DNA of 64,000 bases from Bdellovibrio sp. (GCA_014378765.1 JACMNA010000028.1:6565-70564); one strand, 5' to 3'. Positions 38,103-41,112 are shown, numbered from the stretch's first letter. The notes: generated by a model from the letters alone, not told the origin. Translations and numbers: made by a program.

Positions 38103-38963
38103 CTAAAGTGAAGTAAAAATAAAACTTAATGTACCTTTAAATACGGGATAGACAGCTTCTTGATAAACTTGGTAAAGCGCCGTTAAGTAGATTTGCGGCG
38201 ATACCTCGTTTGTACCTGATTGCGTCTGCGGTTTGATCAATTGGCTGTAATAAGTGTATTCACGCGGGACTTGGTTTGCCGGATCTAAACGCCAAGCATA
38301 CTGCAACTGGTGACTTTGCAGGGTCACATCATGATTAATAAAATCGAAACGGCTTACTTGATGAGCCAAGTGACCGTCTTTAAAAATTTCTTCAATCAGT
38401 AATTGAAATTTGCCTCCACCTAATATCGGGCCTCCAATGACCAGATTCATTTGTTGACCGGTGGTGTTCTGGTTAATACGTATATCGACCATTTGGCCGA
38501 CTAAGCTTAAAGAATACGACGTTGTCATTTGATGATCAGGAAACAAACCTTTCATTAATAGTTTATCGGGCGTGGGCGTTAATCCGACCCCTTGACGCTC
38601 AACCGAGAATATTTCGAATGAATTATTACAGGCTTTTAAAATAAGGCTTTCTGACATACTCATTAATATTGGACTAATCATTTTTTGCGTACGAACAATT
38701 TCAAGATCGGTTGTTTCTGTAACTGCGTATGTCTTCTGACAAATTAACTTTGAATCAAGATGCAAGTGGGTGGATGTAATCCAAATCGAAGATCTACTTT
38801 TTTTAAAAAAGGTAATCATTGCTTGATTCAACTGATATTGTAAATGTTCAAGTATGCCGCTGATTTGTACCGGATTTATTATTTTTTCATAAGGCGGAAG
38901 GGGCGCGGCTGCGTGTGCACTTAAGGCTCCTAAAAAAATAAGCACGCCGAAAAAGTTTTTCAC
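38103..38963 (-). CDS. exported protein, third gene of the secretin-like operon (paralogue of the 337-aa protein)
   Basis: Signal peptide ending SAHAAA. 4-nt ATGA overlap with the upstream gene. Shares local similarity with the 337-aa product. Confidence 0.5.
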   Translation of the reverse strand: MKNFFGVLIFLGALSAHAAAPLPPYEKIINPVQISGILEHLQYQLNQAMITFFKKSRSSIWITSTHLHLDSKLICQKTYAVTETTDLEIVRTQKMISPILMSMSESLILKACNNSFEIFSVERQGVGLTPTPDKLLMKGLFPDHQMTTSYSLSLVGQMVDIRINQNTTGQQMNLVIGGPILGGGKFQLLIEEIFKDGHLAHQVSRFDFINHDVTLQSHQLQYAWRLDPANQVPREYTYYSQLIKPQTQSGTNEVSPQIYLTALYQVYQEAVYPVFKGTLSFIFTSL

Positions 38964-39973
38964 TCTTCGACTTTCAATTGATTGGTTTTAATCAATTCAA
39001 TTGTTCTTTGCAAGAACTGCTTAACCTGTTCTTGTTCGGTGTTCGTCTGCATGCGGATGGCATTCTTTTGCAGGTCGCGAAAAAATCGCGTGTCGGTTGC
39101 GCCACCCTGCACCGTCACCGTCACCGGCAAGCGTTTTATAAACTGCGAAAAAAGTTCTTTGATAAAACTGTTACTGGTCTTTGTGATTACAAACTCTAGT
39201 TCTTGGTCGAATTCTCCTGGGTCTACCACTCTGTCGTTAATGAAATGATCAATTCTTTGCTCGGTCCATTCTAATTGAATAACCGAACTTGGTTTATTTT
39301 TAAAACTAAATCTCTGATTCGAATTTCCAACAAGAAAAGTGCCCGCATTTATTTTGATTAGCAGTCGGCGATGGCTTGGCGTCAAATCAAGTTGATTTAT
39401 CTCTAGCCAGGTGGCGCCTTTCACTGAAACCGTAGTATTAATCGCTTCGCCCTGCCCCTCGGCAGAGCGTAAAGAATTTATCGAAAGTAGGATAGAACCC
39501 TGATCTTCTAATTCATACTGCCGCGAAGTTTCGGTTTCGTTAACTTCAAAGGTGCGAACAAATTTAGCGGCTTCCGCTGATGTCATAATCGCAGGATTTT
39601 TACCAACAACCTGAATACGTTCATTAAATACCACGTCACCTTTGCAATCATGATGACTTATTATTATGACCGATCGAAACTGTCCATCGGGCAGGGCCTC
39701 TTGACTTTGGCTTATTCGAAAGCCCGCTTTTTCATTACTACGGTTGACCGCTTTTTCGCTGGTAGAGCAGTCTAGTAACAGATCTTTCTCAACAAAATGG
39801 CGGGTCATATTTTTTTGCAAGTCTTGATATTTTAATTTTATCACGGCCATGGCATTTTGCTGGATGCTACTTAAAATTTCCGCTGATGACGTAACCATGG
39901 TGTCGACCGTCAAGGGCGCGCGCTCGGCGTAAGCTGCACTAGATATAATAAGCGCAAATAAAATTGAACGCAT
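38960..39973 (-). CDS. exported protein, second gene of the secretin-like operon
   Basis: Signal peptide ending AAYAE. 1-nt overlap with the upstream stop. Confidence 0.5.
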   Translation of the reverse strand: MRSILFALIISSAAYAERAPLTVDTMVTSSAEILSSIQQNAMAVIKLKYQDLQKNMTRHFVEKDLLLDCSTSEKAVNRSNEKAGFRISQSQEALPDGQFRSVIIISHHDCKGDVVFNERIQVVGKNPAIMTSAEAAKFVRTFEVNETETSRQYELEDQGSILLSINSLRSAEGQGEAINTTVSVKGATWLEINQLDLTPSHRRLLIKINAGTFLVGNSNQRFSFKNKPSSVIQLEWTEQRIDHFINDRVVDPGEFDQELEFVITKTSNSFIKELFSQFIKRLPVTVTVQGGATDTRFFRDLQKNAIRMQTNTEQEQVKQFLQRTIELIKTNQLKVEE

Positions 39974-41112
39974 TACTTAGCTTGTTTTTCTGCTGACACG
40001 GTCGTTTCAGCACAGTTGGGTGACGGCTCAGTGTTTTCACTATCGCTTTCAGCCTTGATAATAAATAAAAAATCTTTAGTTGCTTCGACCGATTGTTTAC
40101 TACTTTTTAAACCAAAATTTCTTTTAACTTCTTTTGATATTTTAGAAAGTCCGACGAGACGAATGGCGGTAGAACACCCTATTTCAAGTTCTAAATCACG
40201 TAAATACGAGCTGTATTTCATGCCCCCCACTAAAGTGCGCTCAGCATTGTCGCCCTCTTCATAATCGGTGTAAGTAGCATTGAAGTTTTTAATCACTACT
40301 TTAAATTTATCATTTTCGTGAAATCGCACGTTACCTTCAGCTTTAAATCCCAAAGTTTCTTGGTAAGCGGCAACTGAATTCGGTGTTATGTAGAGGGTTT
40401 GTGAAATGGGCTGTGAACTTGATAGCTGGTAATCATGGGTAATCTGAATTGGAAAGTCGACTACCGTTTTTATATCATTGCGTTGCTTGAAGTTTTTAAG
40501 GACGATGTCTAATAAGTTATTGACTAAGTTTCCAAATGCAAAATTAATGTTAATTAAGCCCGCCGGATTAGTTGCTATGCTCGTACGATCAATTGGCTTA
40601 TACGCATCTTGTCGTCGACTAGCATGTTTGGCGCCAACGACTAAGCCAATCGAATCATCAGCATTTTCGATCAACTGTAAAACTTTAATTACGATGTTAA
40701 CCTTACGGCGGGGCACAAAAATATCCTGCACATCGAAGTCTGAAATTTTGTCCATGATCATTTTGATTTTATCAGCATCTGGGTGCGCGAACTCAAGCTG
40801 ATCGTTCTTTAGCACTTTGACATACATATTTGCATCCGTTGGCTCGCGATCTTTATAGAAATAAGTTAGAATGCGCGACTTAAGGGTGTGCGCCGATACT
40901 TTTTTCGGTAAGTAATTACACACGGTTTTTTTGCCATCGAAGTCCATTTGCTCACAGTGGAAGTCACCGATCACGTGGGGCTGGGCTGCTACGGCGACAT
41001 TCTGCGAAAAACTGCGAGTAATGCCGGCTTGCCCTTGGGCCACTGCACCCAGTAATTGAAAACTGCATAAGGTAACGCAAGCGATCTTGGGTAGGGCTAG
41101 GCGAATACGCAT
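39973..41112 (-). CDS. compact secretin-like outer-membrane protein (379 aa)
   Basis: Signal peptide, then RKVNIVIKVLQLIENADDSIGL, LKNFKQRNDIKTVVDFPIQITHDYQ, AYQETLGFKAEGNVRFHENDKFKVVIKNF and LVGLSKISK...KDFLFIIKAE. These track the conserved blocks of the secretin domain, but the PxLGxIPxLGxLF motif is degenerate. Judged by eye only. Confidence 0.45.
   Translation of the reverse strand: MRIRLALPKIACVTLCSFQLLGAVAQGQAGITRSFSQNVAVAAQPHVIGDFHCEQMDFDGKKTVCNYLPKKVSAHTLKSRILTYFYKDREPTDANMYVKVLKNDQLEFAHPDADKIKMIMDKISDFDVQDIFVPRRKVNIVIKVLQLIENADDSIGLVVGAKHASRRQDAYKPIDRTSIATNPAGLININFAFGNLVNNLLDIVLKNFKQRNDIKTVVDFPIQITHDYQLSSSQPISQTLYITPNSVAAYQETLGFKAEGNVRFHENDKFKVVIKNFNATYTDYEEGDNAERTLVGGMKYSSYLRDLELEIGCSTAIRLVGLSKISKEVKRNFGLKSSKQSVEATKDFLFIIKAESDSENTEPSPNCAETTVSAEKQAK

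Follow-up and report, generated by a model that had tools for sequence, protein, structure and literature searches.

Type II and type III secretion systems (T2SS and T3SS), type IV pili (T4P), Tad pili, DNA uptake and filamentous-phage release all use secretins as their gate in the outer membrane. The superfamily (Pfam PF00263) includes GspD/PulD of T2SS, PilQ of T4P, InvG/YscC/MxiD of T3SS, RcpA/CpaC of Tad and BfpB of type IVb pili. To our knowledge, every secretin that has been studied is one part of an ATP-driven, envelope-spanning machine in which it works with an inner-membrane motor, and we know of no characterized secretin-domain protein that is anything other than an outer-membrane channel. 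Classical secretins dock to their inner-membrane partners through the N0 domain, and structural work on GspD, InvG and PilQ has assigned the amphipathic helical loop (AHL) and the beta-lip to the membrane-embedded parts of the protein. The most compact of the well-studied members, the pIV protein of filamentous phage (gene IV of f1/M13, 426 amino acids), carries an N0 and an N3 domain and functions together with the phage pI/pXI ATPase. In curli export, the CsgG/CsgE/CsgF system combines a Sec-exported channel with periplasmic and surface factors and exports clients from the periplasm with no ATPase or inner-membrane component. Here we analyze an operon of three genes, which we call A, B and C, on the minus strand of a 64,000-nucleotide stretch of Bdellovibrio sp. 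DNA (GCA_014378765.1, JACMNA010000028.1:6565-70564; hereafter the window, whose positions are used for all coordinates given without a locus name). The product of gene A is very probably a highly divergent secretin homologue, and its gene was accompanied by the same two partner genes on every contig that extended far enough to show them.

Gene A (41112..39973, minus strand) begins with ATG and encodes a protein of 379 amino acids, which an original prediction made from the sequence alone had read as a minimal secretin. We compared a profile of 36 A-superfamily sequences (A5) by hhalign with 11 reference secretins, all annotated as such and together covering five types of system (the panel: M13 pIV, two GspD, three SctC/YscC/MxiD, PilQ, two CpaC, and two unclassified proteins from Deinococcus and Mesorhizobium). 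The profiles aligned over 224 colinear columns with a probability of 92.2%, a score of 62.7 and P = 6e-7, the last without a database-size penalty because the secretin hypothesis had been set in advance. The alignment starts at the helix that closes the N-domain, runs through to the final strand and matches residues 110-358 of A with residues 175-424 of pIV. Reversing either profile, or permuting columns (30 permutations), reduced the score to at most 15 and the probability to at most 0.1%, and the distant members of the superfamily, compared with the panel on their own, gave a probability of 86.8%. The comparison thus detects remote homology between A and the secretins.

The secretin-like pore domain, delimited by hhalign and the structural model, spans residues 135-358 (40039..40710, minus strand). 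Its blocks follow one another in the order RRKVNIVIKVLQL (a strand), the NFAFGNL helix region, DIKTVVDFPIQITHDYQ, LGFKAEGNVRF, LELEIGCSTAIRLVG and DFLFIIKAE, after which a short C-terminal tail carries a conserved Cys. In the alignment, RRKVNIVIKVLQL is paired with DQILIEGLIFEV, DIKTVVDFPIQITHDYQ with HSKILSVPRILTLSGQ, LGFKAEGNVRF with VGISMSVFPVA, LELEIGCSTAIRLVG with VNLRDGQTLLLGGL, and DFLFIIKAE with TLYVLVKAT, which recovers almost block for block the motif mapping by which the original prediction had placed A on the secretin domain. The N-domain likewise joins the pore domain in canonical form, through a helix ending in ..LD.. and then a long strand.

Structure prediction pointed to the same family. 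A first AlphaFold model, built from 7 sequences, reached a predicted local distance difference test (pLDDT) value of 55.7, and 22 secretins already ranked first among its matches. A second, template-free model (AF2), built from 36 sequences, reached a pLDDT of 76.4 and a predicted template-modelling score of 0.62, with values of 92-97 in the N-domain and 85-93 in the long beta-hairpins. When we searched 350,542 PDB chains with Foldseek, ranks 1-28 were all occupied by secretins (E from 1e-7 to 1.5e-5, probability 1.00), comprising GspD, XcpQ, ExeD, InvG, MxiD, PilQ, BfpB and pIV and representing T2SS, T3SS, T4P, type IVb pili (T4bP) and phage; the first other fold, at rank 29, was a serpin (E = 6e-3). 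A search of BFVD with the A model returned a single significant viral protein, of 409 amino acids (E = 7e-7).

The same model places a single periplasmic N-domain at residues 50-130 (40723..40965, minus strand). It consists of a beta-hairpin containing Cys53 and Cys65 followed by a beta-alpha-beta-beta-alpha arrangement, which is the order found in the ring-building N1/N3 domains of secretins, and C53, C65 and Y67 are nearly invariant in the 36 sequences. Taken alone, the N-domain showed no significant sequence similarity and no match to the Pfam N0 domain PF21305 or to PF03958, and the match of the first model to the periplasmic domain of EscC (3gr5) was weak (E = 0.83, rmsd of 2.8 Å over 67 columns).

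Several results weigh against reading A as a secretin channel. The Pfam test proposed along with the original prediction came out negative, in that neither PF00263 (Secretin) nor PF03958 (Secretin_N) matched A or its six close homologues at E<=10, or 23 distant relatives at E<=1. PDB sequence searches with the A family profile, and with the single sequence, gave no significant match. TM-scores between the A model and solved secretins were only 0.22-0.35, with rmsd values of 14-36 Å, in comparisons with a monomer model, which cannot take up the conformation of a subunit within the ring; scores this low (<=0.35) support secretin-like local structure and do not demonstrate the double-barrel geometry. 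The AHL, which is marked by the motif PxLGxIPxLGxLF, was found by regular expression in none of the 36 A members, even in a loose form, and its absence raises the possibility that membrane insertion of A is compromised or achieved differently. Finally, the beta-lip equivalent of A (residues 157-194) was modelled at pLDDT <50. Among the other curated collections, NCBIfam placed A in no secretin family and gave nothing at its cut-off, and PHROGs gave nothing significant for A. A partial match of A to PorP/SprF of type IX secretion (TIGR03519; 14.3 bits against a cut-off of 90.55, E = 0.021) was rejected.

The lack of a curated profile match and the low TM-scores would be expected if the secretin likeness were spurious, with A an unrelated beta-rich exported protein whose resemblance is an artefact of composition, of beta-hairpins or of structure prediction. 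So would the comparison with individual secretin subfamilies, in which A scored at most 45 with a probability of at most 61% (T3SS being nominally closest), and the score of 63 with the whole panel, since known subfamilies scored 78-184 against each other (P from 1e-10 to 1e-23) even with profiles of 1-3 sequences. We nevertheless regard this explanation as very improbable. Two methods that share no information agree, the composition-preserving reversal and permutation controls fall to background, the 224-column colinear alignment matches known conserved blocks, and the template-free model retrieved 28 secretins out of 28, from five system types, before any other fold. What the subfamily scores indicate is that A is an outlier to all known secretin classes, more distant from each of them than they are from one another.

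A also differs from classical secretins in the domains it lacks: it has a single N-domain, no S-domain and no N0 domain, the last being missing in all 36 members. The original prediction had called the PxLGxIPxLGxLF motif degenerate, which was too mild: the motif is absent throughout the A superfamily, whereas the same regular expression found it in 11/11 panel secretins, and the alignment of A with the panel has a deletion of ~9 residues at the AHL position. A and pIV are alike in size and in having few N-domains ahead of a pore domain, pIV is the panel member against which the alignment is displayed, and its structure 7ofh gave one of the best target-normalized TM-scores (0.35), but pIV has a perfect AHL motif (PFLSKIPLIGLLF). 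The stretch of A aligned to the presumed first gate region is ~11 residues shorter than in pIV. In the distant A proteins (P0016-P0039; for example L011:10001-11506 and L026:8001-9491), the secretin-like part stops ~130-150 residues before the C terminus, and the extension, which has no Pfam match, sits where classical secretins have a short S-domain.

These losses raise the possibility that A has kept the secretin fold without forming a transmembrane pore, and serves with B and C as a periplasmic or membrane-associated ring or scaffold. In addition to the missing AHL (36/36) and the low global TM-scores to real secretin subunits, the beta-lip equivalent is not only modelled with low confidence but also not hydrophobic, and all of this favors such a role. 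Set against this, the remaining pore-domain blocks are colinear and conserved, and the characterized secretin-domain proteins are, as noted above, all outer-membrane channels. We therefore think a non-pore role improbable, and a pore function for A somewhat more probable than its absence.

Gene B (39973..38960, minus strand, ATG start) encodes 337 amino acids and gene C (38963..38103, minus strand, GTG start) 286. Both overlaps given in the original prediction are exact: the stop codon of A and the start codon of B share 1 nt at 39973 (TAATG), and the stop codon of B and the start codon of C share 4 nt at 38960-38963 (GTGA). These start/stop overlaps indicate that translation of A, B and C is probably coupled. 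A Shine-Dalgarno-like GGAGG (41117..41121, minus strand), read from the sequence, lies 4 nt upstream of the ATG of A, and a terminator-like G+C hairpin followed by a T-run (38089..38110, minus strand) overlaps the stop codon of C and lies between C and a convergent response-regulator gene. The base composition of the operon is the same as that of its flanks, and an Rfam scan of the operon with its 680-nt leader gave no match.

At the N terminus of all three proteins, and of their orthologues, is a short hydrophobic stretch that closes in an AxA-like site; neither a lipobox nor a further membrane segment was found by eye or in a hydropathy scan. A, B and C are therefore predicted to be exported through cleavable-looking signal peptides, in agreement with what had been read from the window alone. 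That each has orthologues in the same order on other contigs establishes that they are real genes.

Relatives of A are few. We found six, at 35-40% identity, among 5.8 billion clustered proteins, and an exhaustive profile search of 1.84 billion representative proteins yielded 33 representative clusters. The superfamily comprises a close clade of ~375-430 amino acids and a distant tier of 460-550 amino acids at 15-20% identity. Only 1 of 185,579 species-representative genomes carried A, and it was a metagenome-assembled genome (MAG) of Bdellovibrio sp.; a scan of JGI metagenome contigs with a second alignment of the family (A1) found none. Every named copy is called 'hypothetical protein [Bdellovibrio sp.]' by NCBI and comes from a MAG. 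The triad is thus restricted to Bdellovibrio-like genomes.

Within this group the triad is conserved as a unit, a property that had been put forward as a check on the original prediction. The order A-B-C was complete in 11/11 independent contexts (all contigs extending far enough), with short overlaps or gaps between the genes, and this included A relatives at only 15-20% identity. The contexts are the window, L001/L002, L003, L004, L005, L007, L011/L012 (A, B and C of 501, 360 and 288 amino acids), L013 (428, 319 and 333), L024/L025 (474, 339 and 250), L026 (496, 345 and 269) and L027/L028 (376, 341 and 282). The genes flanking the triad are unrelated between the lineages that carry it. Among orthologues in the same gene order, identity was 35-40% for A, 33-44% for B and 25-31% for C, such that B is about as conserved as A and C less so.

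Because word-indexed searches with B or C returned the queries alone, we drew their orthologues from loci containing A. Homologues of B were detected in all loci (E from 1e-11 to 1e-17 in the distant-tier triads), and C was found in every close locus and also in L026 (5e-11); in the distant loci L011 and L024 no homology of C was detectable, the sequences being too diverged. Judged by these similarities, the positional partners B and C are true orthologues across loci. In L005, C was called as a protein of 205 amino acids after a 247-nt gap following B (L005:2376-2623) and has neither the signal peptide nor the first ~80 residues present in all other C proteins, which could come from an error in calling the start or in the assembly, or from a frameshift.

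We then asked what B and C resemble. B has an N-terminal helix and a conserved Cys69/Cys110 pair, and differs from C in an extra C-terminal helix of ~55 residues with the conserved tail ..IKTGRLKVE. In the faster-evolving C the pair is Cys75/Cys112, and the motifs ERQG and QY.W.LD...VPR.Y are conserved. Each family thus retains a single pair of Cys, near residues 70 and 110. Profiles of 11 sequences each aligned by hhalign over 210 colinear columns (probability 89.3%, P = 2e-6), with scores of at most 18 after reversal and at most 24 in 40 permutations. Leaving out two unverified C sequences gave 85% (P = 6e-6). The alignment pairs HHDCKG of B with LKACNN of C, in keeping with the Cys at matching positions that had been noted originally. 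B and C are thus probably distant paralogues, a claim of the original prediction that holds with diverse profiles and finds little support in narrower ones, since close-clade profiles alone gave ~10% and 5-sequence profiles 0.4%.

Neither B nor C gave anything above cut-off in Pfam, NCBIfam or PHROGs, or any significant match to solved structures in PDB sequence and profile searches. Direct comparison with GspA/B/C/K/L/M, YscB/D, pI, pIII and a stand-alone N0+N1 protein described below revealed no similarity. We rejected three sub-threshold or partial matches: HP1454-like_C of the LPP20 lipofamily for B (E = 0.006, 17 bits against a cut-off of 27, in 2/5 B proteins), a NikR-like match for C (E = 0.04), and phrog_29369, of unknown function, on the N terminus of C (E = 2e-4), which covers the signal peptide. 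The most conserved motif of C (QY.W.LD...VPRQYLYY..E, residues ~215-240) showed a non-significant resemblance (E = 0.08) to ETQYVHNALKRNPVPRNYNYYQAPE of 8cb2, a Cag pathogenicity-island protein of Helicobacter.

A paralogous pair adjoining a secretin gene, each member with an N-terminal helix and a globular domain, is also the arrangement of PilN/PilO and GspL/GspM. Those proteins, unlike B and C, are anchored in the inner membrane; B and C have no anchor, and their signal peptides look cleavable. GspL and GspM have no detectable similarity to either. The small Sec-exported protein set of CsgG/CsgE/CsgF is a parallel in function only, without homology: CsgG is a lipoprotein with another fold (PF03783), and A, B and C have neither a lipobox nor a Pfam match.

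The explanation that we favor starts from A as the channel. Once exported by Sec, A would most likely multimerize with itself to form a gated channel at or within the outer membrane, with a single periplasmic ring domain in place of the classical N0 plus N1-N3 stack. B and C would be disulfide-containing periplasmic paralogues that co-evolve with A and most likely form a hetero-oligomeric, stoichiometric accessory layer on A, and the conservation of B at the level of A fits a structural partner. Because A has lost the AHL, B and C may take over pilotin, AHL or alignment functions, or they may form a periplasmic vestibule. Substrates that Sec has delivered to the periplasm would cross the outer membrane through the module, with no dedicated cytoplasmic ATPase encoded in cis and independently of such an energy source. 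For this explanation as a whole, of a self-contained channel with a B/C accessory layer and no motor in cis, we see the chances as evenly divided.

B and C could equally be cargo. On that reading A would be the channel and B and C would travel to the surface or the medium, for instance to build a fibre or adhesin with one as major and the other as minor subunit, much as CsgA and CsgB pass through CsgG. Both proteins are Sec-exported, soluble and paralogous with a disulfide-type Cys pair each, and C evolves fastest (25-31% identity, and undetectable in two distant loci), as surface-exposed proteins often do. However, B is as conserved as A, the size and order of the partners stay constant over deep divergence, which is typical of stoichiometric machine parts, neither protein has repeats or amyloid-like or pilin-like features, and no energy source for their export is evident. 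We consider the cargo explanation unlikely.

As the original prediction had stated, the operon is not flanked by secretion machinery: genes for a secretion ATPase, pilin, pseudopilin, prepilin peptidase, needle or inner-membrane platform are missing from the ~13 kb on either side in the window, and from 6-10 kb in L001, L003, L004, L005/6, L011, L013, L024, L026 and L027 (L007 was checked for the triad only). In these flanks A was never linked to an ATPase, pilin or platform gene, and it was always linked to B and C. That the locus encodes no ATPase is no proof that the module works without one, as the type IV pilus genes of Bdellovibrio are dispersed over its genome.

One neighbor is of interest here. 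In L026, a gene divergent from the triad (L026:8001-11346) encodes a 191-residue exported protein (L026:7208-7783, minus strand) made up entirely of two domains, GspD N0 (PF21305, 2e-18) and Secretin_N (PF03958, 3e-7), and lacking a pore domain. Beside a secretin-like gene that has no N0, it gives the look of a split secretin; the arrangement was seen in 1/11 loci.

These observations bear on the possibility that A is a genuine secretin pore that serves a T4P, Tad or T2SS machine encoded elsewhere, with B and C as assembly or alignment factors like the pilotins, PilP/GspC or TsaP. Such an arrangement would accord with the motor coupling of all characterized secretins, with the several scattered T4aP, T4bP and T2SS gene sets of Bdellovibrio, and with the N0+N1 protein adjoining the triad in L026. 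It would also accord with electron cryotomography, in which secretin-only particles without lower rings have been observed (bioRxiv 10.1101/2022.06.13.496000). Against it, the contexts that we examined show no linkage to T2SS, T4P or Tad genes, the N0 domain that would dock A to such a machine is absent in 36/36 members, B and C are unlike GspA/B/C/L/M/K, YscB/D and pI, and the N0+N1 neighbor is confined to a single locus. On balance, service to an unlinked machine seems to us rather unlikely.

A phage origin can be set aside. The triad has no phage gene near it in any context, and A has no significant PHROGs match. We rejected an origin of the triad in a phage or other mobile element on the combined evidence of missing phage genes, a base composition equal to that of the flanks, and flanking genes that are housekeeping genes in each lineage.

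The searchable literature on secretins in Bdellovibrio, and on orphan or stand-alone secretins, contains no description of such a module. Its fold class is known; what is new is the subfamily, the loss of the AHL, N0 and S-domain, the obligate B/C partner family and the motor-less context. On the conservative reading, the locus defines a new secretin subfamily and a B/C partner family, which can be used to build better annotation profiles and to probe how a secretin might insert into the membrane without an AHL. The A family shows that the secretin fold has diversified past the reach of curated profiles; in this lineage a hallmark element for membrane insertion is gone, and two new obligate partners have been added without a motor linked to them. 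The stand-alone conduit put forward in the original prediction is a reasonable hypothesis. A module that works alone would revise the view of secretins as only passive portals of larger machines, and would provide a new export or import route in predators whose secretion biology is poorly understood. In its strongest form, the triad would be a complete secretin-derived outer-membrane device of Bdellovibrio-like predators, one that has shed the N0 docking domain, the S-domain and the AHL and relies on two dedicated paralogous periplasmic subunits, with no inner-membrane motor. We hold this form to be doubtful; if true, it would be the first ATPase-independent secretin system, possibly releasing or taking up folded proteins during predation.

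The remaining neighbors in the window include asparaginase II and many proteins without a Pfam family, among them seven consecutive ORFs of 244-449 amino acids at 24756-32603 (five on the plus and two on the minus strand) with no Pfam match at E<=0.001. Upstream of A, a 46-nt direct repeat (72% identity) occurs at 41213-41258 and 41680-41725, with a palindromic core (GCGAC-AA-GTCGC). The 10-mer that it contains is found at these two sites only in the 64 kb (0.12 expected). Of the two copies, the first is ~100 nt upstream of A and the second ~70 nt upstream of a divergent Fic-domain gene, and the repeat may be a putative operator common to that gene and the A operon; it was found in none of the other triad loci. 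The Fic-domain gene (41794-42903), whose product is exported, is followed by genes for a Tle1-like (DUF2235) phospholipase (43916-44896) and a PLD-family protein (48856-51015). L006 too has a Tle1-like gene, ~2.4 kb upstream of A (L006:1249-2232). These neighbors could be putative effector-type cargo, or could reflect the shared synteny of related genomes.

Signalling genes also recur beside the triads. On the other side of the operon in the window, 34727-38096 encodes a sensor kinase of 1003 amino acids, whose H-box we read from the sequence, and an overlapping receiver-domain protein. A receiver-PilZ gene lies at L026:11465-12157, an FHA-GGDEF gene at L024:5019-6008, and kinase and GGDEF genes at L011:2315-5799. 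Their recurrence could point to control of the triad by cyclic di-GMP or two-component signalling, or to the mere abundance of such genes in these genomes.

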